Positions 2,927 to 62,182 of a stretch of DNA of 64,000 nucleotides are shown in pieces. The translations under genes and the position numbers were made by a program. How positions within the stretch are numbered: position 1 is the first letter of the stretch; every line of letters starts with the position of its first letter. Below the pieces are notes generated by a model that searched no databases, was not told the origin of the DNA, and saw only the letters and a list, made by a program, of their open reading frames with translations. The stretch comes from Chloroflexia bacterium (GTDB lineage Bacteria; Chloroflexota; Chloroflexia; QHBQ01; JADMIH01): NCBI GenBank assembly GCA_036399775.1, contig DASWMJ010000009.1, positions 3,866-67,865 of the forward strand. Reading direction: 5' to 3'.

Positions 2927-3054
2927 CCTTGTCATTCTGAGCGTAGCGAAGAATCTCGTCCCTCGCGTATGCTCTTGCCCTTGCATTCCCCGTCTACGCT
3001 CCCCGGCTTTGTACGCGAGGGACGAGATTCTTCGCTGCGCTCAGAATGACAAGG
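2927..3054. repeat. MITE-like palindromic element A, copy 1 (~43-bp inverted arms, GTCATTCTGAGCG-AGCGAAGAATCTCG core)
   Basis: Left arm ccttgtcattctgagcgtagcgaagaatctcgtccctcgcgta and its reverse complement tacgcgagggacgagattcttcgctgcgctcagaatgacaagg. A second copy is at 58691-58859. Confidence 0.65.
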
Positions 3055-3201: not shown

Positions 3202-5928
3202 ATGAAGTGCCTGCCAAGACGAGAAAAGGTCAGCCCTATGCCATCAGCCCCCGCAAAGAAATCAACCAGGCCCGCCGCGCCTACTTGGTCGAAGGTGAGC
3301 GGTAGCAGCAACACTCCTCGGACGTCCGCTTCAAAGTCCACCGGCGCAAAGAACAGTTCTCGACCTGCATCTTCTTCCGCGCGCAACGCTGCCGGTAAAG
3401 TGAAGGCGCGCAGTACGGCGCGTGCGTCTCGTGCCGCTTCGTCTCCGCCATTTGAGATACCCGCGCATCTACGGCGGGAGATAATGGCGCTGGCTATGCT
3501 GGCGGTGGCGGGGCTGTTCGTGGTGGGGCTGCTTAGCTGGTCGAGTGGCGGCCAGGGTATCGTAGGCGTCATGGGTGGCGTGGTGGCGCAGTTGTTCGGA
3601 GTGCTGGCGTGGGTGGTGCCGGTTGCGCTGGCTGCCGGGGCCGTCGTGCTCCTGCTGGGTGCGCGCTCTGATGCTCGGTGGCTTTCCCCGTTGATGCCGT
3701 TGGGCCTCTCCATAATGCTGCTTGGGCTGATGGGTTTCGCCCATCTCTTCACTAACGGGCAGGGGGCGGCTGATAGCGGGCAGGGTGGCGGCTATGTCGG
3801 TCTCGCCATCTCTACATTCCTGTCAGACTTCCTCACCAGCGCGGGCGCGGGGGTAGTGCTTGCCGCGCTCATCCTGATCGGCTTCATGCTGGCCTTCGGG
3901 GTATCTCTGGCGCAGGTGGTACGCGGTATAGGCCGCCCCACCGTCGCCGCCGGACGCCTCACAGGTAAAGCTATAGGCGAAGCAAGCACCCAGGTATCGC
4001 GCATTCTTGATGAGAGGCAGACAAAATCTAAAATCCGGGTGCCCTCTGGGCGACCAAAATCCAATATCAACACAGAGCCTGTGCGAATAAACGGGCTGGA
4101 TACTTCTCTTGAAGCAAGTGATACCTCCGCGCTACCTACTTTTGACGTGTTGTCGGAGGTCGGTGGGGAGGCGATTGACCCGGCCTCTGCACCCACAGAG
4201 GTTGTGAATCTCCTGGGCGATAAGAGTGCGACGCCGGAAAACGGCAAGGCCAAGCCCGACCCGGTGATAAACATCCGCAAGTCGGATAAGAAGGCGGGGA
4301 CTACCGAACCGACGCTCGGCCCGCAAGAGCCTATCCAGTCGCCGTTGGGCTACATCTGGAACCTGCCTCCCATGAATTTGCTTGAAACGACCAGCGAATT
4401 GAAGGTGAGCCAGGCCGACATCAAGGCCAAGATAAAGGTGATAGAGGACGCCCTGCAATCGTTCAACGTGGAGGCGACGGTGCGCGAGGTCAACACAGGC
4501 CCCGCCGTCACGCAGTTCGCCATCGAGCCGGGCACGGGGGTGCGCGTCAACCGCATAACCGCGCTGGACAAAGACCTGGCATTGGCCCTCGCCGCCCCTG
4601 ACATACGCATCGAAGCGCCAATACCGGGGCAGTCCCGCGTTGGTATAGAGGTGCCCAACGTGTCTCTACAGGTGGTGGGCCTGCGGAGTATCCTGGAGGC
4701 TGACGCCTTCCAGGTCAGCAAGGGCCGGCTGAAGATCGCGCTGGGGCGGGACACGCACGGCCAGCCTGTGGTGACGGACCTCGCCAAGCTGCCTCACATA
4801 CTGGTGGCCGGGGCGACTGGTAGCGGCAAGTCGGTCTTCCTCAACTCGATGGTGATAGGCTTCCTGACGCAGTTTACGCCCGACGACCTTCGCATGCTGA
4901 TGATAGACCCCAAGCGGGTAGAGTTGACCGGCTTCAACGGCATCCCCCACCTCCTGCGTCCTGTGGTCACGGATGTGCGCCTCGAAAAAGACCAGTCCCG
5001 GCCTCAGAATCCGAAGTCTAAGGGAGAAGCCGACCGGGAGCGCCCCCTGACGGCTGTGGAGGCGTTGAAGTGGGCGTTGTGGGAGATGGAGAGGCGTTAT
5101 AAACTCTTCGCGAATGGAAAGCGCGGGAAGGACGGCATCAGCAAGGTATTCCGCAACATAGAGCAGTATCGCACTTTCCTGAAGGAAAACCCCGAAACCA
5201 ACATGGAATACCTGCCGTATATAGTCATCATCATAGACGAGCTTGCCGACCTGATGCTTACCGCGCCAGAGGAGGTAGAGACATCGCTGTGCCGCCTGGC
5301 GCAGCTTGCCCGCGCAACCGGCATACATTTAGTGGTCGCCACCCAGCGCCCCTCGGTGGACGTGGTGACGGGCCTCATCAAGGCCAACTTCCCTGCGCGT
5401 GCTGCATTCGCTGTCACGTCGCAAGTGGACAGCAAGGTTATCCTGGATGGGGGTGGTGCCGAGAAGCTATTGGGACGCGGCGACATGCTCTACACGGCTT
5501 CCGACGAGAGCAAGCCTGTGCGTATCCAGGGTACGTTCGTATCGGATGCCGAGTCGGATAAGGTAGTGCATTTCTGGCGCAAGCAGTTGCCGTCGGAGAA
5601 AGAGCTAGCCGAGACGGGCGTGGAGGCCCCGGTACAGCCGATGCCGATGCCCGATTGGCTGGGCACGGGCGACGCCAACGAAGAGAGCGAGCTTCTTGAG
5701 CAGGCGATAGAGCTTGTGAAGAAGAGCCAGTACGTATCGGTCTCTATGCTGCAACGCAAGCTACGTATCGGCTACAACCGCGCAGCCCGCATCGTGGAGC
5801 AGATGGAGGAGCTAGGGCTGATCTCGCCCGCGAATGGCGACAGCCGGGGCAAGCCACGCGAAGTGTTGCTGGGCGCGCCCGACCCCCGCGCCGACGATAT
5901 GCGAGAACTGGTAGGTGACGAGGACTAG
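3202..5928 (+). CDS. ftsK: DNA translocase FtsK/SpoIIIE
   Basis: N-terminal TM region, long low-complexity linker, then motor domain with Walker A LVAGATGSGKSVFLNSM, Walker B IIIDELADLM, and the LVVATQRPSVDVVTGLIKANFPARAAFAVTSQVDS motif. C-terminal gamma-like winged helix (VSMLQRKLRIGYNRAARIVEQMEELGLI). The true start may be the Met at 3238. Confidence 0.9.
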   Translation: MKCLPRREKVSPMPSAPAKKSTRPAAPTWSKVSGSSNTPRTSASKSTGAKNSSRPASSSARNAAGKVKARSTARASRAASSPPFEIPAHLRREIMALAMLAVAGLFVVGLLSWSSGGQGIVGVMGGVVAQLFGVLAWVVPVALAAGAVVLLLGARSDARWLSPLMPLGLSIMLLGLMGFAHLFTNGQGAADSGQGGGYVGLAISTFLSDFLTSAGAGVVLAALILIGFMLAFGVSLAQVVRGIGRPTVAAGRLTGKAIGEASTQVSRILDERQTKSKIRVPSGRPKSNINTEPVRINGLDTSLEASDTSALPTFDVLSEVGGEAIDPASAPTEVVNLLGDKSATPENGKAKPDPVINIRKSDKKAGTTEPTLGPQEPIQSPLGYIWNLPPMNLLETTSELKVSQADIKAKIKVIEDALQSFNVEATVREVNTGPAVTQFAIEPGTGVRVNRITALDKDLALALAAPDIRIEAPIPGQSRVGIEVPNVSLQVVGLRSILEADAFQVSKGRLKIALGRDTHGQPVVTDLAKLPHILVAGATGSGKSVFLNSMVIGFLTQFTPDDLRMLMIDPKRVELTGFNGIPHLLRPVVTDVRLEKDQSRPQNPKSKGEADRERPLTAVEALKWALWEMERRYKLFANGKRGKDGISKVFRNIEQYRTFLKENPETNMEYLPYIVIIIDELADLMLTAPEEVETSLCRLAQLARATGIHLVVATQRPSVDVVTGLIKANFPARAAFAVTSQVDSKVILDGGGAEKLLGRGDMLYTASDESKPVRIQGTFVSDAESDKVVHFWRKQLPSEKELAETGVEAPVQPMPMPDWLGTGDANEESELLEQAIELVKKSQYVSVSMLQRKLRIGYNRAARIVEQMEELGLISPANGDSRGKPREVLLGAPDPRADDMRELVGDED

Positions 5929-6487: not shown

Positions 6488-6594
6488 ACACTCCTGCGTG
6501 TCAGGCACACGCCTCTAACGACAAGAGTCCAGGGTGAGCAATTAGCGCTCACCCTGAACTGTTGTTATTTGACGTAGAAGCAGAGCGCTAGCGT

Positions 6595-17342: not shown

Positions 17343-17358
17343 AGAAAAAGAGATTATC

Positions 17359-17403
17359 AATAAGCGGAAAATGGGCGGCGCAGCCGCCCATTTTCCGCTT
17401 ATT
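17359..17403. terminator. Bidirectional terminator-like palindrome (AAAATGGGCGGC-GCA-GCCGCCCATTTT family)
   Basis: 21-bp perfect arms aataagcggaaaatgggcggc / gccgcccattttccgcttatt between convergent genes. A related palindrome is at 23487-23536. Confidence 0.65.
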
Positions 17404-17444
17404 GACAAAAAACATCTCTCTGTCCAGGCCAGTCACCCAGGTCC

Positions 17445-23436: not shown

Positions 23437-23486
23437 CTCGCCTGGCATACTGAACGGCGTTTGCCGACAAGCGTAAAATTCTTAGT

Positions 23487-23536
23487 TCAAAAATAATAAA
23501 ATGGGCGGCGCAGCTGCCCATTTTATTATTTTTGAA
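23487..23536. terminator. Terminator-like palindrome (same core as 17359-17403)
   Basis: ttcaaaaataataaaatgggcggc gca gctgcccattttattatttttgaa. Confidence 0.6.
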
Positions 23537-23597
23537 CATCCCTCTTTAACACGGAGGGCTGTAGTGGAGCGCTCGTAAGCATGAGGCGAGCACGAAG

Positions 23598-35700: not shown

Positions 35701-35812
35701 TACTGCGTAGTGCGTAGTGCGTAATTGTTGAACCGCAAAATCGCAAAGGAACGCAGAGTTCGCAAAGGTTATTATAGGTTCTACGCAATACGCAATACGT
35801 TTACGTTTCACG
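35701..35812. repeat. Inverted pair of heptamer arrays (GCGTAGT / CGCAATA type) between the two ABC genes
   Basis: ctgcgtagtgcgtagtgcgtaa ... ctacgcaatacgcaatacgtttacgtttcacg. Confidence 0.65.
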
Positions 35813-38133: not shown

Positions 38134-38213
38134 GGATCAGGGGCCAGGGGCTAGGGGTCAGGGATTTGTACCTGGCGGATCCTGATCCCTGATCCCTAAC
38201 CCCTGGCCCCTGG
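38133..38213. repeat. Inverted pair of heptamer arrays (GGGGTCA/GGGGCCA type)
   Basis: gggatcaggggccaggggctaggggtcaggg ... cctgatccctgatccctaacccctggcccctgg. Confidence 0.7.
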
Positions 38214-41520: not shown

Positions 41521-41634
41521 CCGTATTGCGTAAAGCTATATAGAGTTTGTACAATCCCACAAATCGCTTAGTGTTCTTTGTGTCTTTGTGGTTCGATAAT
41601 CACGCAATACGCAATACGAACTACGCAATACGAG
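41521..41634. repeat. Composite repeat: GAACCACAAAGACACAAAGAACACTAAG unit (reverse orientation) joined to a CGCAATACG heptamer array
   Basis: cttagtgttctttgtgtctttgtggttcgat aatcacgcaatacgcaatacgaactacgcaatacg. The same unit in opposite orientation is at 61326-61460; a partial is at 14676-14697. Confidence 0.7.
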
Positions 41635-55202: not shown

Positions 55203-55252
55203 AAGGCTTATGTACCACTATAAGTATAAGCCTGTAGAGGAAGAGTGGCAAA

Positions 55253-55413
55253 TGCGGAGTGCGGAGTGCGGAGTGCGGAAGGCGGAGTGCGGAGTGCGGA
55301 GTGCGGAGTGCGGAATATAGCCGAGCACTAACGCCAACATTACCGATTACCCAAATTGGCCTATCTTAATTCCGCATTCCGCACTCCGCATTCCGCACTC
55401 CGCATTCCGCATT
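55253..55413. repeat. Inverted pair of heptamer arrays (GCGGAGT x9 / TTCCGCA x6) around a 53-bp centre
   Basis: gcggagtgcggagtgcggagtgcggaaggcggagt... atagccgagcactaacgccaacattaccgattacccaaattggcctatcttaa ...ttccgcattccgcactccgcattccgc. Confidence 0.8.
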
Positions 55414-55787
55414 CAGGAGGCTGCTCGCTCTTGAAGGTCGGTGTACTTCGTGTTGCGGCCTCTTGACAGGTCGGCGGGGTAGTGGCCTGCGGAGATCGCC
55501 ATCTTGTCGCGGAAGACGGCAGAGAGGTCGAAGTCTACCGAGGAAGCGAGCGCCAGGACGTGATAGAGCAGATCGGCTATCTCGTGGGCGACGGCCAGCC
55601 GCTTGCCTGGCTGCTTGAGGAGGGCTTCTATCTCATCATCTGTGCGGAAGCGGAAATGCTCCATCAACTCGCCCAGCTCTATCGCCATGCTGAGGGTGAG
55701 GTCCTTCGGGGACTCATGCCACTGGCGCTCCTCGCAAAACTTATCTACCAGGCTGCGCAGGTAGGCTACCGATGTCTGCTCGTCCAT
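55413..55787 (-). CDS. MazG-like nucleotide pyrophosphohydrolase
   Basis: ELGELMEHFRF...EIADLLYHVLALA is the EExxE/D MazG core. Confidence 0.8.
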   Translation of the reverse strand: MDEQTSVAYLRSLVDKFCEERQWHESPKDLTLSMAIELGELMEHFRFRTDDEIEALLKQPGKRLAVAHEIADLLYHVLALASSVDFDLSAVFRDKMAISAGHYPADLSRGRNTKYTDLQERAAS

Positions 55788-56002
55788 CTCTGTAGATGCT
55801 CCTGTGGCTCTATTGGGTGATGGGTGATAGGTTTTGGGTGGTAGGCAGTCGAAGTGCCGCTATCCGGTTAACGGATTATAGCCCGCATGGTTCCCGCGCG
55901 CCGACATTTCCACTAATCGGGATACCTGTTTCATGAGAAATCCCGATTTTCCTTATCCTTGCGCAAATCGGCACTCTCATCTGCCAGGCACAAACCTCTT
56001 AT

Positions 56003-56057
56003 AAAATCAACAGTAAAAATCACGCCGCGCAGCGGCGTGATTTTTACTGTTGATTTT
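56003..56057. terminator. Long perfect palindrome, terminator-like
   Basis: aaaatcaacagtaaaaatcacgccgc gcag cggcgtgatttttactgttgatttt (26-bp arms). It is followed by a second hairpin cccctccccacgctgggggtgggg. Confidence 0.55.
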
Positions 56058-56151
56058 AATCTCCCCTCCCCACGCTGGGGGTGGGGTGTTAGGGTTCCGA
56101 ATCTAAATTTCGGGATGTGTCCTGTGTCTGAAAGAAGTGGAGGCAGGCGGG

Positions 56152-56923: not shown

Positions 56924-57388
56924 CTACCTTGTTCCCCATTCCCACATGCCATAAGCCGTCTTCTTGTCGAGGGCATGTCCTGATTGGTTGAGTATCATGC
57001 CAATCTCGCCCTGGTGGTACGACTCGTGGGCAATCAGGTAGGCCATGAAGGCCACCGCATGGGGCTTGAAGCCCTTTATCTTGCCGCCCGCCTCTATGCC
57101 CCTCCCCAGCAAGGCATCTATGGCGCTGCCCGACCCTTCCAGCGCCCGCCGCAGCAACTCTTTATCGCCCGCGCTCCCCTTGTCTATCTTCGCCAGCCCC
57201 TCTATCAGATCGGGCGCTGCCGCCTCAAGCCACGCGATGCGGTTGTTGTGCATGTGGGCGAACTCTGCTCCGACTGTGCGCCCTTTGGAGGCTGAAACGC
57301 CGCCCAATGCTTCGGGCGAGATGGCATCCAGCACGTAAAGGGTGATGCGGTTGTGGATGCGCCAGGTATCCAGCACATGCTCGTCCAT
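56924..57388 (-). CDS. DinB/YfiT-family (DinB_2-like) metal-dependent protein
   Basis: Histidine pattern H...(about 100 aa)...HESYHQGEI typical of the DinB_2 helical bundle. Confidence 0.7.
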   Translation of the reverse strand: MDEHVLDTWRIHNRITLYVLDAISPEALGGVSASKGRTVGAEFAHMHNNRIAWLEAAAPDLIEGLAKIDKGSAGDKELLRRALEGSGSAIDALLGRGIEAGGKIKGFKPHAVAFMAYLIAHESYHQGEIGMILNQSGHALDKKTAYGMWEWGTR

Positions 57389-57391
57389 GCC

Positions 57392-58603
57392 TTACTCGCC
57401 GCTCCAATTGCGCCTCAACTGGATCGGTTCCTCCACGTGGCGCTCAGGCTTGCCTGCGCGGTGGCGCGTGGCAGGCATCAGGTCTTCTTCGCCGTAAGCC
57501 TGGGAAGGGGTCTGCGTATGGGATACCAGGTAATCAACGGCTTTGCGGACCTCGGCTTCGCTAGCGCCTGCGGCCTGGAAGCGTATTAGCTCTGCGTTGA
57601 GCGTGATGAGGAAGTCGCCCGCGCCCAACAGGCCATGCGCGCCTGAGCCTTTGATGCCTGTCGCCAGGCGCGCGGCCTCCTGCGATGAGACCCAGCCGCT
57701 GATGCGCGCACTCCACCGCACGTCACCCAGGCGTTCAGGCTGCTGGGCCGACACTACCATGTGGATGTTGTGCCTGCGCCCCTCCATGAGAAGGCGGCTG
57801 AGCGCGTCTAGGGCTTCGGCGTCCGCCCGTCGGTTGCCGGTCGAGCATAGCTCGTCGGCCCCATCAACCATGACCACGAGAACAGGTTCCTCTGCATGGC
57901 CTGAGTACTCAAAGAGCCGTTCATCCTCTCTCGTGTCGTCATCATCGAAGCTTAGCTCGTCGCGCTCGGAGAGGTGGAGACGGCGGGTCAGGGTGCGTAA
58001 AGCCCAGCGCAGGCTGACCAGCGAATTGACGGGGCCGCGCGCCACCGGGCAGGCGAGGTGGGGCAGGCCGTCCAACCCTCTGAACGCGCTGCCGTCCGCC
58101 GCGCCACTCAACAGCAGGAGGCCCATCCTTTGGGGCGAATTGTGCAGGGCAAGGGAGAGGGCCATACCCCTGAGCAGGCTGCTTTTGCCCGCGCCCGGGT
58201 TGCCCGCGACAATCACCGGGTCTACGTCGGGTGAGTTGAGCCTCAGGAGGAGGGGAGTGCTGTCCGTGTCGAGGCCCAGCGTAGCGGTGAAGGGCGGGAC
58301 CACGTCAGCGACGCGCTGTACCAGGGGCAGCAAGCGCACGGGCACGGGGTCGGGTCGGGGCACTTCCAGGTAAACGCCCTCGTCGGTGGGCGCGAGCCTG
58401 CACGATACCACGCCAAGCGCGTCGGCTATTTCAGGTACGAGGGAGGTTAGTTGAGCAGGCCGCACGCCCGGCGGCAGCATAATGTGGAAATGCGTGAGCC
58501 GGGGCGACATTTTACCGCCGTCTACCTGCCCTTTGATGCCGTGTATGTGCAGCACGTATTCGATGCTGTTGGCCTGCCGGTCCAGTATGTCTCGTAGTGC
58601 CAT
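57392..58603 (-). CDS. Soluble FtsK/SpoIIIE-family ATPase paralogue (alpha+beta motor domains only)
   Basis: N-terminal ...LDRQANSIEYVLHIHGIKGQV...VSCRLAPTDEGVYLEVP parallels the FtsK alpha domain. Walker A VIVAGNPGAGKSSLL, Walker B VLVVMVDGADEL, ...MVVSAQQP.... No TM helices or gamma domain. Stop overlaps the DinB-family gene start. Confidence 0.75.
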   Translation of the reverse strand: MALRDILDRQANSIEYVLHIHGIKGQVDGGKMSPRLTHFHIMLPPGVRPAQLTSLVPEIADALGVVSCRLAPTDEGVYLEVPRPDPVPVRLLPLVQRVADVVPPFTATLGLDTDSTPLLLRLNSPDVDPVIVAGNPGAGKSSLLRGMALSLALHNSPQRMGLLLLSGAADGSAFRGLDGLPHLACPVARGPVNSLVSLRWALRTLTRRLHLSERDELSFDDDDTREDERLFEYSGHAEEPVLVVMVDGADELCSTGNRRADAEALDALSRLLMEGRRHNIHMVVSAQQPERLGDVRWSARISGWVSSQEAARLATGIKGSGAHGLLGAGDFLITLNAELIRFQAAGASEAEVRKAVDYLVSHTQTPSQAYGEEDLMPATRHRAGKPERHVEEPIQLRRNWSGE

Positions 58604-58690
58604 GGTAGTGACCTCGGATAATCTTAGGTAGTCTTATTTGCTCTCTGGTGGCGTATCAAAAAAGTAGCGAGGGAACGCCACCCTACTATT

Positions 58691-58859
58691 CCTGTCATTC
58701 TGAGCGAAGCGAAGAATCTCGATCCTCGCGTAGATGCTTATGGTACGCCTTGTATGCTTACCCGACACGATCTCTGAGAGCGAGATTCTTCTTTCTTACG
58801 AATAATCCCGGCATTGTTCGCGAGGATCGAGATTCTTCGCTTCGCTCAGAATGACAAGG
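58691..58859. repeat. MITE-like palindromic element A, copy 2
   Basis: cctgtcattctgagcgaagcgaagaatctcgatcctcgcgta ... cgcgaggatcgagattcttcgcttcgctcagaatgacaagg. Confidence 0.65.
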
Positions 58860-58929
58860 CTTACTTTATTCGCTTACTCCTCACAATCTGCTTGCCCATG
58901 TGAAGTAACTGCTCAGATACGGGTTGACA

Positions 58930-59463
58930 TTATGCCTGCTGTAGCTGCTCCTCCGATTCTGGCTTTTCCAGCCAGGCGCTTATCGGCCCGAGGTGCTCTG
59001 GATAGTGCTCGAAGGTGTTCTCAGCGATGAGCCGCCAGGGCTTCCAGTCGGGAGGCATATCTTCGTAAAGGGAGGCGTCGTTCAGGTCTTCATCAGATAG
59101 CTTCTCGATTTCTGCGACAAGCTGCGCGTATACCTGTTGCGCTTCCGACAAGACTTCATCCAGTGATAGATGCTTGCCCTCCTCCACCATCGCGGTATTA
59201 CGCTCGGTTTGGGGCAGATCCCAGAGGTCGGAGCCTGTCAGCTTGTGCTGCCGGAATACCTCTATAATCTCGCGTTCGCCCCACAACACATGGTATATGA
59301 CATCCTTGACCGTCCACTCCGACCCATCTCCCATCACCCCAGGCTCCGTCATGCGCGCCGACGGTATCCGCGAAATGAGCGCGTCCCACTCCTGGCGGGC
59401 GCTACGCATCGCCTCCAACACCTCTGCCTTGCTCATTTCTTCACCCATTCTCGACCCTCTCAA
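58930..59463 (-). CDS. DfsB/ClbS-family (DUF1706-like) four-helix-bundle protein
   Basis: WTVKDVIYHVLWGEREII... and C-terminal ...FEHYPEH... resemble the ClbS/DfsB pattern (recall only). Confidence 0.55.
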   Translation of the reverse strand: MRGSRMGEEMSKAEVLEAMRSARQEWDALISRIPSARMTEPGVMGDGSEWTVKDVIYHVLWGEREIIEVFRQHKLTGSDLWDLPQTERNTAMVEEGKHLSLDEVLSEAQQVYAQLVAEIEKLSDEDLNDASLYEDMPPDWKPWRLIAENTFEHYPEHLGPISAWLEKPESEEQLQQA

Positions 59464-59514
59464 ATGCGGAATGCCGAATATGACCTTCGCAAATCACGTT
59501 TTACGTTTCACGTT

Positions 59515-60234
59515 TCACGCATCACACTTGAGTACCATCGTCACCACGCCCTGCACGCGTACCGGGTCGCGGTCGCCTTCGCGGCGGCCTGGGAAGATGC
59601 GGATGGGGTCGGTGGAGGCATTGGCTGATTGTAGGAAGATGTGGTCGCGGCGCTTGTAGAACCGCTTGAGGGTGGCGAGACCTTCCGCGCCTGCCGCGTC
59701 CCCGGCGGTGAAGCCTGCTACCACGAAATCGCCGTCTTCGGCCCAGTTCTGCGGGCGCACTATCACAACGTCGCCCGGCTCGATGCCGACGTGGGTCATG
59801 GAGGTGCCGCGCACGCGCAGAGCGTAAGAGCCGCCACGCGCCAGGGCTTTCTCCACCAGCACGCCGCCTTCGTAGTCGAGGCAGTCGTACTCCTGGTAGG
59901 CCACCGTCACATCGTACTGCCCCGCCGCGATCTCGCCTATGACGGGCAGGCGGGACACGCTGGCTGCGGGCTTGCGGCGCTGCCTCTCCACATTGGAGAC
60001 GTAGACGCTGCTGTTGTGCTTGTTGCGCTCCGGCCTGCTCTGCTGTTCGTCCGAAAGGGTAGGCTCTCCACCGAGCACGCGGTATGCCTCAGCTTCAGGC
60101 TTGAACGCCTTGAGGCTGACGCTGCTCACCCAATCGGGCGGCGCTGCTACCGTGCGGGTGAAGCGCGCCCAGGCCGGGTTAGGCCCCGCCTGCGGCCCGC
60201 GATGTGGTGAAAATCCCGGCAATCGAATTACCAT
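59515..60234 (-). CDS. S24-family peptidase (LexA/UmuD-like C-terminal domain) with non-canonical N-terminus
   Basis: C-terminus GTSMTHVGIEPGDVVIVRPQNWAEDGDFVVAGFTAGDAAGAEGLATLKRFYKR is the S24 catalytic domain (Ser in GTSM, Lys in LKRF). The N-terminal ~110 aa lack an obvious wHTH. Start uncertain. Confidence 0.6.
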   Translation of the reverse strand: MVIRLPGFSPHRGPQAGPNPAWARFTRTVAAPPDWVSSVSLKAFKPEAEAYRVLGGEPTLSDEQQSRPERNKHNSSVYVSNVERQRRKPAASVSRLPVIGEIAAGQYDVTVAYQEYDCLDYEGGVLVEKALARGGSYALRVRGTSMTHVGIEPGDVVIVRPQNWAEDGDFVVAGFTAGDAAGAEGLATLKRFYKRRDHIFLQSANASTDPIRIFPGRREGDRDPVRVQGVVTMVLKCDA

Positions 60235-60250
60235 TGTGCCTACCTCCTAA

Positions 60251-60371
60251 CGTATTGCGTAGTGCGTATTTCGTATTGCAATGGAGTTAGTGAACTTGAG
60301 TTGTGGAAGCTAGCTATTACTAACCCTCTTTGATTGGGACCTTACGCAATACGAAATACGCACTACGTAAG
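60251..60371. repeat. Inverted pair of heptamer arrays (CGTATTG/CGTAGTG) around a ~75-bp centre
   Basis: cgtattgcgtagtgcgtatttcgtattgca ... ttacgcaatacgaaatacgcactacgtaa (exact reverse-complement arms). Confidence 0.8.
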
Positions 60372-60471
60372 GATGGATGGCGAACCGGCCAGGGATAAGC
60401 CCCAGGCCGGCGCACTCTATTTAGGGTATGCACCCGGCGCATACCTCTAATGACTCAGTTATCGCTTATTT

Positions 60472-61170
60472 TTAGTCCAGGCGGCGGATGACGCCCACTA
60501 CCCTGCCCTTGATCTCTACGTTGTCGGGCTGGGTGAAGATGGGGGACATGGTGCTGTTGGCGGGCTGCAAGCGAACGCGCCCCTCTTCGAGGTAGAACCT
60601 CTTGAGGGTAGCTTCCTGCTCGGCCTTGAGCCATGCCGCGACGGTCTGGCCGTTCTCGGCTGTCTCCCGCGCTTCGAGGATCACCAGATCGCCGTCGTTG
60701 ATGAGGGCGTCTATCATGGAGGTCCCCTTGACGCGCAGGGCGTACAGGCGGTCTATGTGCGTCGCGTGGCGGCCCAGGAAGTCACCTGTCACCTCCACCG
60801 TGTCGTCGGTCGCCGCGCCCATGCGGATGTCTTCCAGCACGGGGATGGGGGAACCGGCGGCGATGGGCGTTGGCGCGACGGGTATCATGTAGGCCGGCTG
60901 GCGGTTGCGGCTGCGCCCGTTGCTGTCCACAAGCTCTATCGCCCGTGACTTATTGCGGTCGCGCCTGATGTAGCCCGCCTCCTCCAATGCGCGCAGGTTG
61001 TAGTCTACAACCGACGTGGAGGTGTTGCCCGATGCCGTGCGCACGAGGCCTGCCTTCTCGACTTCGCCCTTGATCTCGCGGATAGAAGGCGCGTAGCCGT
61101 GTTCCCGGAGGTAGTCGCCGATGAAGGACAGGATAAAGCGTTGGCGTTCCGATAATCGCTTCTTTTTCAT
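60472..61170 (-). CDS. lexA: LexA repressor
   Basis: N-terminal wHTH LSERQRFILSFIGDYLREHGYAPSIREI. Cleavage/catalytic domain ...ALRVKGTSMIDALINDGDLVILEARETAENGQTVAAWLKAEQEATLKRFY. Confidence 0.88.
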   Translation of the reverse strand: MKKKRLSERQRFILSFIGDYLREHGYAPSIREIKGEVEKAGLVRTASGNTSTSVVDYNLRALEEAGYIRRDRNKSRAIELVDSNGRSRNRQPAYMIPVAPTPIAAGSPIPVLEDIRMGAATDDTVEVTGDFLGRHATHIDRLYALRVKGTSMIDALINDGDLVILEARETAENGQTVAAWLKAEQEATLKRFYLEEGRVRLQPANSTMSPIFTQPDNVEIKGRVVGVIRRLD

Positions 61171-61270
61171 GGTTCTATTTCCTCTCTAGTGCTCCCCCGG
61201 AGCTTTTGCATATAATGGGCATTCTGAATTTCTTGCGATACGCCCGATATGCCTAGGGCGACTATAGCAT

Positions 61271-61284
61271 AGAACCAATGTTCT
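61271..61284. promoter_or_regulatory. Candidate LexA operator (Cheo-box-like GAAC-N4-GTTC) between lexA and the divergent cvpA-like gene
   Basis: agaaccaatgttct, ~100 bp upstream of the lexA start codon. Palindromic GAAC/GTTC half-sites with a 4-nt spacer. Confidence 0.45.
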
Positions 61285-61325
61285 TGTCAATACCTTTTTG
61301 CACTAATTTGGAACAAATATGCTGA

Positions 61326-61460
61326 TTCGTATTGCGTAGTGCGTATTGCGTATTGCATGTGAACCACAAAGACACAAAGAACACTAAGGTTTCGGGATTG
61401 AACCATAGGAGCGCTGAGGCTATTAGAAGCTTTACGCAATACGTACTACGTAGTACGAGG
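61326..61460. repeat. Composite repeat: CGTATTG heptamer array + GAACCACAAAGACACAAAGAACACTAAG unit + inverted heptamer array
   Basis: cgtattgcgtagtgcgtattgcgtattg catgt gaaccacaaagacacaaagaacactaagg ... ctttacgcaatacgtactacgtagtacg. The unit matches 41555-41585 in opposite orientation. Confidence 0.75.
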
Positions 61461-61570
61461 CGCCTTTTACGTTTGGGCCATATGCCGGTGTGACTTATGT
61501 CCTATTCCTCGCTGGGGGTGGTGCCGTTAGAATGATGGGGTATGAGTGTGTGCAGTAGGGGGTTTAGTCT

Positions 61571-62182
61571 GTGCGTGAGCTAATCAATCTTATACCGTTC
61601 TTGGACATAGCCATTGGAGTGTTGGTGCTCTTTTTCCTGTACCTGGGGTGGAATCATGGCGTGCCGAAGCTGTTGATGGTCATAGGGGCTATCTACACGG
61701 GGTTTCTGCTGGCTTCGGTCTACTATCATCTTATTGGGGTGAAGCTTGCCACCGTGTTCAAGATAAAGAGCGCGTTCGTAGCCGACCTGATTACGTTCCT
61801 GGCGCTTGACGCGCTGGTTACCATATTTATGCTGGTTGTGCTGCTCAATGTTTTCAAGCACGTGCAGTTCAAAGGGCGGGTCGTGGTGTTCGATAAGATA
61901 GCGGGGTCGGTGGTGGGTCTCTTCGCGGCGGTGCTGGTCGCAGGCATCCTGATAGCTTTGTTGAGGGTGCCCTACGAGGCTGGCAAGAGCAAGATCAACC
62001 CGGCAACGGATGTGCCTGCGGTGCAGGTGTTCAATAACGCTTATGAGAAATCCGCGCTCGCACCCAATTTCCTGAAGGCCGCACCGCTATTTATACGTAC
62101 CGTAGCGCCGCTATTGCCAACGGAGACTAAGGAGAAGGGCGCAGTGCCTCTGCTTCAAAGTATAGTGGTGTCGCAGCAGTAG
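61571..62182 (+). CDS. CvpA-family membrane protein
   Basis: N-terminus LIPFLDIAIGVLVLFFLYLGWNHGVPKLL and 3-4 TM helices are typical of colicin V production protein CvpA. GTG start. Confidence 0.65.
   Translation: MRELINLIPFLDIAIGVLVLFFLYLGWNHGVPKLLMVIGAIYTGFLLASVYYHLIGVKLATVFKIKSAFVADLITFLALDALVTIFMLVVLLNVFKHVQFKGRVVVFDKIAGSVVGLFAAVLVAGILIALLRVPYEAGKSKINPATDVPAVQVFNNAYEKSALAPNFLKAAPLFIRTVAPLLPTETKEKGAVPLLQSIVVSQQ

Follow-up and report, generated by a model that had tools for sequence, protein, structure and literature searches.

The stretch of DNA analysed here (the window) comprises 64,000 nucleotides (nt) of a Chloroflexia bacterium (assembly GCA_036399775.1, contig DASWMJ010000009.1, positions 3,866 to 67,865). 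On its reverse strand it carries lexA (60472..61170), a second gene for a protein with an S24 peptidase domain (59515..60234), referred to below as the LexA paralogue, and a gene for an FtsK-like P-loop protein (57392..58603). Thirty loci encoding a relative of the second gene, 260 kb in total, were fetched from metagenome-assembled genomes (MAGs) of Chloroflexia for comparison; the upstream (lexA) region is present in 29 of them, and in 28 the downstream DNA reaches the position of the FtsK-like gene. Nineteen of the loci belong to a close clade, and others to a distant clade. The order cvpA (divergent), lexA, paralogue was found in all 29 loci with upstream DNA, and a gene for a protein of ∼400 amino acids with an FtsK/SpoIIIE domain follows the paralogue in 28 out of 28. 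Three features of the locus are strongly supported: a canonical LexA with an operator in its promoter, the linkage of the three genes, and a paralogue that combines an intact autoprotease site with an orphan N-terminus under selection.

The lexA gene encodes a canonical SOS repressor of 232 amino acids, as the original prediction had proposed for the same coordinates. The Pfam domain LexA_DNA_bind (PF01726) was detected at residues 4-77 (E 2.1e-15), which indicates the N-terminal winged helix-turn-helix (wHTH) of the LexA type, and Peptidase_S24 (PF00717) was matched as well; the TIGR00498 lexA model gave 158 bits, above its curated cut-off of 110.95. Cleavage is predicted between Ala105 and Gly106 (in the sequence IAAG), with Ser151 (in GTSM) and Lys190 (in LKRF) as the catalytic residues, and the closest solved structure is that of Thermotoga LexA (3k2z). 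In comparison with the distant clade, the LexA proteins of the close clade contain ∼12 additional amino acids (EKAGLVRTASGN), inserted after helix 2 and before the recognition helix (residues ∼37-49, window positions 61020-61060), while the recognition helix itself, STSVVDYNL, is invariant across both clades.

Upstream of lexA, a consensus scan of positions 57000-61700 detected a single sigma-70-type promoter (61261..61290, reverse strand), consisting of TTGACA (61290-61285), an 18-nt spacer and TATAGT (61266-61261) with a TG extended -10, and matching 11 of the 12 consensus positions. The GAAC-N4-GTTC palindrome which had been reported ∼100 bp upstream of lexA lies within this promoter: the Cheo-type LexA box GAACCAATGTTC occupies positions 61272..61283, between the -35 and the -10 and 102 nt 5' of the lexA ATG. 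No other exact match exists in the 64 kb, where 0.55 would be expected, and shuffled sequences contained at least one match in 44 of 100 cases, so that a single box in a window of this size is not rare per se; its position and conservation, in contrast, are far beyond chance. Among the related loci, 28 exact boxes were found, and all 28 reside in lexA promoters, each of them flanked by TTGACA and the -10. The exact box is thus kept in 28 of 29 orthologous promoters; one locus (L029) has a box with one mismatch at the same promoter position, and the thirtieth lacks the promoter region. The arms are invariant, the N4 spacer occurs in 11 different sequences among the 28 exact boxes, and the layout (TTGACA, GAAC-N4-GTTC, then the -10) is retained even in the most distant relatives.

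Because invariant arms and a free spacer inside a core promoter constitute the classical footprint of a dimeric repressor, autoregulation of LexA through the Cheo-type box is well supported by comparative evidence, and the box is very probably the operator of lexA, as had been suggested without knowledge of the related loci. The GAAC-N4-GTTC motif is established for the LexA proteins of Firmicutes and Actinobacteria, and variants of it are reported from Cyanobacteria and Chloroflexi (PMC4951493, which cites Fernandez de Henestrosa 2002 for Chloroflexi). The known Cheo-box systems (those of Bacillus subtilis, other Firmicutes, Actinobacteria and Dehalococcoides ethenogenes) share with the present one the wHTH and S24 domains, the dyad with its spacing, and the site in the repressor's own promoter. 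Apart from the insertion in the close-clade proteins, nothing essential appears to differ, and this part of the locus is of an ordinary, known kind.

An additional conserved element was evident in the alignment of the lexA upstream regions, just 5' of the -35 (TTTGTTC...ATTnGTGCAnAAA; 61295..61317, reverse strand). In six related loci it reads GAACATTCGTGC (GAACATT[CA]GTGC), i.e., a Cheo box with one mismatch, at a distance of 28 nt upstream from the main box. Possible interpretations are a LexA site or half-site with an auxiliary role, an UP-like element, or a part of the divergent cvpA promoter.

A degenerate site had also been noted between lexA and the second gene. The sequence itself exists (GAACTTGAGTTG, 60292-60303, one mismatch to GAAC-N4-GTTC); as a second operator, it was rejected. 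One-mismatch matches are not enriched in the window (9 observed versus 18.8 expected), and no such site occurs between lexA and the paralogue in any other fetched locus. The site is located in the loop of a hairpin element built of TACGCAA-type heptamer repeats (60251..60370), whose arms (60255-60279 and 60346-60370) are 96% complementary and whose 3' arm abuts the Shine-Dalgarno sequence of the paralogue. This hairpin belongs to a dispersed family (20 matches versus 0.86 expected), and the part of the intergenic region that contains it is not conserved between loci. Owing to its absence from the other loci and its location in the hairpin loop, the site is treated as a chance occurrence. The other one-mismatch sites of the window all fall within open reading frames (ORFs), except for one at 6556-6567.

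Intergenic hairpins with arms of tandem heptamers are a general feature of the window. They occur at 234-258, 1460-1543, 35706-35799, 38138-38212, 41522-41632, 55243-55414, 59494-59521, 60251-60370 and 61327-61458, are composed of several heptamer types (TACGCAA, GAGTGCG, CAGGGGC, GAATTTT and CACGTTT), and their 3' arms often adjoin the Shine-Dalgarno sequence of the next gene. The loops of the hairpins at 41522-41632 and 61327-61458 have ∼28 nt in common, in opposite orientation, and in related MAGs other heptamers occupy the same intergenic positions. These elements resemble the cyanobacterial STRR repeats.

The second gene encodes a protein of 239 amino acids on the same strand as lexA. Its only Pfam match is Peptidase_S24 (PF00717, residues 97-231, E 2.1e-19), and the GTSM and LKRFYKR motifs, on which the initial assignment to the S24 peptidases had been based, are both present. 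A Shine-Dalgarno sequence (GGAGG) precedes the ATG by 8 nt, and both this sequence and the start codon are conserved among the loci. The protein does not qualify as a LexA repressor: PF01726 is lacking, TIGR00498 yields 67.7 bits, below the cut-off for lexA, and the AlphaFold2 model contains no helical bundle. The features of the self-cleaving S24 family are present, including the fold, the Ser/Lys pair and a predicted Ala-Gly cleavage site (Ala104-Gly105). A103, A104, G105, S145 and K190 are invariant in an alignment of 67 family members, as are the AAG sequence, S145 and K190 in an alignment of 20.

The earlier statement that this protein lacks a recognisable wHTH is borne out by Pfam, which detected none, and by the AlphaFold2 model (mean predicted local distance difference test, pLDDT, 75.7). 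The S24 core was predicted with confidence and residues 71-100 pack onto it, while the first 70 residues consist of a moderately confident beta-hairpin (residues 23-43) and are otherwise disordered. The alignment of the N-terminus that had been called for was made with hhalign, and the profile of this region matched those of the local LexA N-terminal domains with a probability of only 0.03%; a cryptic wHTH was rejected on these three grounds. In Foldseek searches with the model, LexA C-terminal domains ranked first, followed by lambda CI and UmuD', and the N-terminus gave no match. By BLASTP, the paralogue and the adjacent LexA are 34% identical from LexA residue 69 onward, and the alignment places the wing strand of LexA (RRDRNKSRAIELV) opposite RPERNKHNSSVYV of the paralogue. 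A remnant of the wing is only suggestive, because the profile-profile comparison of the N-terminal regions shows no similarity. A search of 5.8 billion proteins recovered 161 relatives, all from Chloroflexia/Chloroflexota MAGs or metagenome contigs and most of them alignable over the full length (49-96% identity), with some fragments.

Within the family, the N-terminal region is basic, rich in proline and glycine, and marked by short conserved motifs (MVIRLPG, GPQPGPxPAWARFxR, KPDxxAYRVLG and RNxHNSSVYV). A profile of residues 1-96 recovered 11 sequences from 1.84 billion representatives, and the seven that were inspected all belong to the same family; likewise, no homologue of the first ∼66-96 residues was found outside the family, and PHROGs also gave no match for the N-terminus. 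There was no signal of an origin from a frameshifted 5' region of lexA (tblastn in all frames, best E 0.27), and PADLOC returned no defence-system match for the paralogue. Taken together, the data support the view that gene 2 arose from LexA, the DNA-binding three-helix bundle having apparently been replaced by a lineage-specific region.

It had been suggested that the second gene might be a LexA pseudo-paralogue or phage-repressor-like; in the former case it would be a lexA duplicate in decay, and in the latter it would encode the repressor of a prophage or of some other integrated element. Its tandem arrangement with lexA and the loss of the HTH are in line with such an origin, and S24 proteins are common among phage repressors (phrog_4). 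Nevertheless, dN/dS (the ratio of non-synonymous to synonymous substitution rates) among close orthologues is well below 1 in both halves of the protein, with values of 0.12-0.30 over residues 1-66 and of 0.03-0.16 over the catalytic domain, and the invariant catalytic residues and the conserved translation start are likewise unexpected in a decaying gene. The cvpA, lexA and FtsK-like neighbours are the same in every locus reached, no HTH was found, and no integrase or phage genes were identified within 10 kb. The duplicate and the prophage versions of this explanation are thus scarcely credible, and the low dN/dS in both the N-terminus and the catalytic domain argues that the paralogue is probably a functional LexA-derived autoprotease.

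A UmuD-like function had also been considered; the protein would then serve as an accessory subunit of a translesion polymerase and be activated by removal of its N-terminus. An S24 domain with an intact cleavage site in an SOS context is compatible with this role, and weak matches to UmuD were obtained (NF007621, 37.5 bits, and phrog_811). The NF007621 score is, however, far below the cut-off of 110 bits for this model, and the LexA model scores better. Moreover, the fold is nearer to LexA than to UmuD', and the N-terminal piece comprises 104 amino acids rather than 24. No umuC or other Y-family polymerase gene was present in the Pfam-annotated contexts, and the flanking genes in the 30 loci are accounted for by tblastn with the operon proteins of the window. 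We regard a UmuD-type subunit as very improbable.

The third member of the conserved trio is a soluble FtsK-like protein of 403 amino acids, which consists of the alpha and beta motor domains only (PF17854 and PF01580) and aligns with residues 91-461 of the FtsK motor structure 2iuu (E 2.5e-19). Neither FtsK_gamma nor FtsK_4TM was detected by Pfam, which indicates that the gamma domain and the membrane anchor are missing. The family comprises 146 hits, which come, like the 161 relatives of the LexA paralogue, only from Chloroflexia/Chloroflexota MAGs and metagenome contigs. In an alignment of 112 members, the GKS of Walker A is present in all, while the Walker B glutamate is replaced by glycine in 109 (the window protein reads hhhhD-G), and the arginine-finger position is occupied by arginine in only 55. 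The protein thus has the alpha/beta motor and the Walker A motif and lacks the Walker B Asp-Glu pair, the gamma domain and the anchor. Most members end, after a variable acidic tail, in PLRRxWxG(E/D) (P-x-P-L-R-R-x-W-x-G-E/D; window positions 57392-57430), with the tryptophan conserved in 88 of 112; this C-terminal motif looks like a docking peptide. PADLOC gave only generic P-loop hits for this ATPase.

A canonical, full-length FtsK of 908 amino acids is encoded elsewhere in the window (3202..5928, forward strand); its domains are 4TM, alpha, beta and gamma, and it retains the DE pair of Walker B as well as the arginine of QR. Since a complete FtsK is present, the 403-residue protein is considered an extra, degenerate copy, so that LexA and FtsK each have a degenerate paralogue in the operon. 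So far as found, the gene trio is restricted to what appears to be one uncultured lineage of Chloroflexia.

Two further genes may join the operon. A gene of the DinB_2/DUF1706 family (Pfam; 58930..59463, reverse strand; 172 amino acids in the public call, 177 in the longest ORF) is an optional member, found by tblastn in 12 of the 30 loci and located in L012 between lexA and the paralogue. The start of another DinB-family gene (Pfam DinB; 56924..57388, reverse strand) overlaps the stop codon of the FtsK-like gene. The annotated neighbourhoods otherwise contain ordinary chromosomal genes, and no integrase, phage or Y-family polymerase genes were found in the neighbourhoods annotated with Pfam.

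Among the repeats of the window, a MITE-like (miniature inverted-repeat transposable element) inverted repeat, TGTCATTCTGAGCG(A/T)AGCGAAGAATCTCG, with arms of 38-43 nt, is present at 2927-3054 and 58693-58856, the latter copy lying within the operon, where it separates the DinB_2 gene from the FtsK-like gene. Near-perfect palindromes of 25-27 nt (96-100% complementary, with 3-nt loops) occur at 56002-56058, 17354-17408 and 23485-23537; they are A/T-rich with a GGCGGC/GCCGCC centre and look like bidirectional terminators.

As to the transcription of the paralogue, no exact box was found 3' of the lexA promoter in the fetched loci, and the consensus scan detected no promoter-like site there in the window. 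In the distant clade the lexA stop codon is separated from the ATG of the paralogue by only ∼20-60 nt, and in one locus (L028) the stop codon of the paralogue overlaps the start of the FtsK-like gene. Because a downstream box and a promoter-like site are both lacking and part of the intergenic region is unconserved, read-through from the lexA promoter is the simplest reading, and the arrangement of these signals suggests that the paralogue is most likely transcribed in this way.

The conserved part of the intergenic region is an element of two hairpins immediately after the lexA stop codon (60371..60445, reverse strand), which was found in 18 of the 19 close-clade loci. It comprises P1 (60425-60445), P2 (60385-60410) and an invariant tail 3' of P2 (TTCGCCATCCATCC, 60371-60384). 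P1 has the same position in every close-clade locus and an unrelated sequence in each. P2 has the form CCGGCC-x-GGG..CCC-x-GGCCGG, in which the CCGGCC/GGCCGG arms are invariant, the internal mismatch is conserved and the inner stem shows GC-to-UA exchanges. Its positions are 95.5% paired, with one compensatory pair, and six of the nine pairs never vary. An RNA element is favoured because the G-U pairs are confined to the sense strand; the covariation is modest, and the predicted structure is plausible.

A metagenome-wide scan for the pattern of P2 plus tail returned 35 loci. All 14 with lexA or the paralogue carry the pattern at the lexA-paralogue junction, and in the other 21, which resemble chance matches in unrelated GC-rich DNA, neither gene was seen. 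Rfam gave no match for the element at the gathering thresholds and only noise at E up to 10 (the DnaX frameshift element, E 2), and ARAGORN found no tRNA in the window. Since the DinB-family gene of L012 separates the element from the paralogue, the element is assigned to the 3' side of the lexA gene. Possible roles are attenuation or processing of the operon transcript, and the element may set the ratio of LexA to the downstream products.

The inverted repeat of P2 bears on a different explanation, namely that the paralogue is a cleavable regulator of transcription or RNA, whose basic N-terminus would adopt an unrecognised nucleic-acid-binding fold, with CCGGCC...GGCCGG as a possible site. 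The isoelectric point of the N-terminal 104 residues is 10.5, the predicted beta-hairpin could belong to such a fold, S24 repressors with atypical N-terminal domains are known (PMC4807011, PMC8565304), and in the close clade the repeat upstream of the paralogue is invariant in sequence. Set against these points, the N-terminus has no match to DNA-binding families in Pfam or PHROGs, nor to anything outside its own family, and most of residues 1-70 are predicted to be disordered. The spacing of the arms varies through the P2 loop and inner stem, which is unsuited to a fixed dimer; the distant clade possesses the protein and lacks the inverted repeat, and in L012 another gene intervenes between repeat and paralogue. 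A nucleic-acid-binding regulator is, in our judgement, quite unlikely. Like the UmuD-like and the mobile-element or pseudogene explanations, it is contradicted by the tests described here.

Alternatively, the paralogue might tune LexA itself, either by forming heterodimers with a single DNA-binding domain that weaken repression in a dominant-negative manner, or by competing for RecA filaments, and so shape the timing of SOS induction or shut-off. Its C-terminal domain is most similar to those of LexA, which form the dimer, and it follows lexA directly in each of the 29 loci, so that the two proteins would be made together. The conservation of the dimer interface is unproven at 34% identity, however, and tuning of LexA would leave unexplained both the purifying selection on an orphan N-terminus of 66-96 residues with its motifs and the strict co-inheritance with the FtsK-like gene. 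This explanation is considered unlikely.

The reading that we prefer, with a probability of roughly 0.55, is a LexA-autoregulated operon of lexA, the S24 paralogue, the optional DinB-fold genes and the FtsK-like gene, in which the paralogue would be a switch cleaved upon damage, with the FtsK-like protein as its probable target. LexA dimers would block RNA polymerase by binding the box that separates the -35 from the -10 of the lexA promoter; upon DNA damage, self-cleavage of LexA at Ala105-Gly106 would derepress the operon, and read-through in the close clade would cross the two-hairpin element. The paralogue itself would be a damage switch at the protein level rather than a repressor. Self-cleavage at Ala104-Gly105, stimulated by RecA filaments, would separate the 104-residue N-terminal piece from the catalytic domain, and would release or inactivate a partner, most likely the co-inherited FtsK-like protein. 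The latter, with its Walker A motif intact, would bind nucleotide. Since it has lost the glutamate of the catalytic site, the gamma domain and the membrane anchor, it might regulate the canonical FtsK or poison it, or otherwise keep chromosome segregation or division on hold while repair proceeds. The parts of this scheme that we infer are the joint transcription of lexA and the paralogue, the stimulation of cleavage by RecA, and a protein-level output, most likely on the FtsK-like protein.

Several observations weigh against this operon-and-switch scheme. The spacer between lexA and the paralogue is 237 nt long in the window and contains three strong hairpins, which are potential terminators, and it could harbour a weak or non-sigma-70 promoter. 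Neither recA nor uvrA nor uvrB was seen in the examined parts of the window or in the fetched loci. The loss of the Walker B glutamate is no proof of lost ATPase activity, and an acidic residue is present three positions after the Walker B aspartate in 103 of the 112 FtsK-like proteins. The basic character of the N-terminal piece, finally, would suit nucleic-acid binding as well.

In its most specific form, the proposal would be a branch of the SOS response at the protein level, in which an HTH-less copy of LexA senses RecA filaments and controls a crippled, soluble copy of FtsK, thereby providing a checkpoint on segregation or division, for instance by poisoning the FtsK hexamer. In this form it is possible but doubtful. 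We know of no SOS division inhibitor that acts through such a pair of LexA and FtsK copies.

Among the known systems, UmuD is the favoured mechanistic analogy for the paralogue. It too has an S24 domain and no HTH, and loses an N-terminal piece by RecA-stimulated cleavage at Ala/Cys-Gly, which alters protein-protein interactions and not DNA binding. In contrast to UmuD, the paralogue appears to derive from LexA, scores below the UmuD cut-off and has a longer, conserved N-terminal piece; no UmuC partner was seen in the loci, and its partner would instead be the FtsK-like P-loop protein. UmuDAb of Acinetobacter and the non-canonical LexA proteins of Bacteroidetes are likewise self-cleaving S24 proteins of the SOS response that lack the canonical LexA wHTH (PMC4807011, PMC11332147, PMC8565304). 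Those proteins, however, bind DNA and are the main SOS repressors where canonical LexA is absent, whereas here a canonical lexA gene lies immediately upstream and the paralogue shows no sign of a DNA-binding fold.

B. subtilis SftA is a soluble FtsK-like translocase, and the FtsK-like protein of the window is likewise soluble. For control of an FtsK-family protein by LexA, a precedent exists in E. coli, where the dinH promoter makes ftsK SOS-inducible (PMC4080785); at the present locus, such control is suggested by the gene arrangement. The protein described here differs from both E. coli FtsK and SftA in being a second, ∼400-residue copy without the transmembrane and gamma domains and with glycine in Walker B, in a window that encodes the housekeeping FtsK elsewhere. 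The literature search retrieved no paper that describes a LexA paralogue lacking the HTH and linked to FtsK. The coupling of such a paralogue to a degenerate FtsK paralogue appears to be a previously undescribed variant of the S24 self-cleaving theme.

These results extend the Gram-positive type of SOS operator to an uncultured lineage of Chloroflexia, with unusually clean comparative evidence. The point of particular interest is the conserved trio, in which a LexA paralogue has kept its protease, has had its DNA-binding domain swapped and is locked to an FtsK paralogue without the catalytic glutamate. If the paralogue is indeed a damage-cleavable switch on chromosome segregation or division, the trio would represent a new coupling of the SOS signal to the cell cycle and would join UmuD as the second case in which S24 self-cleavage controls a protein machine rather than transcription.

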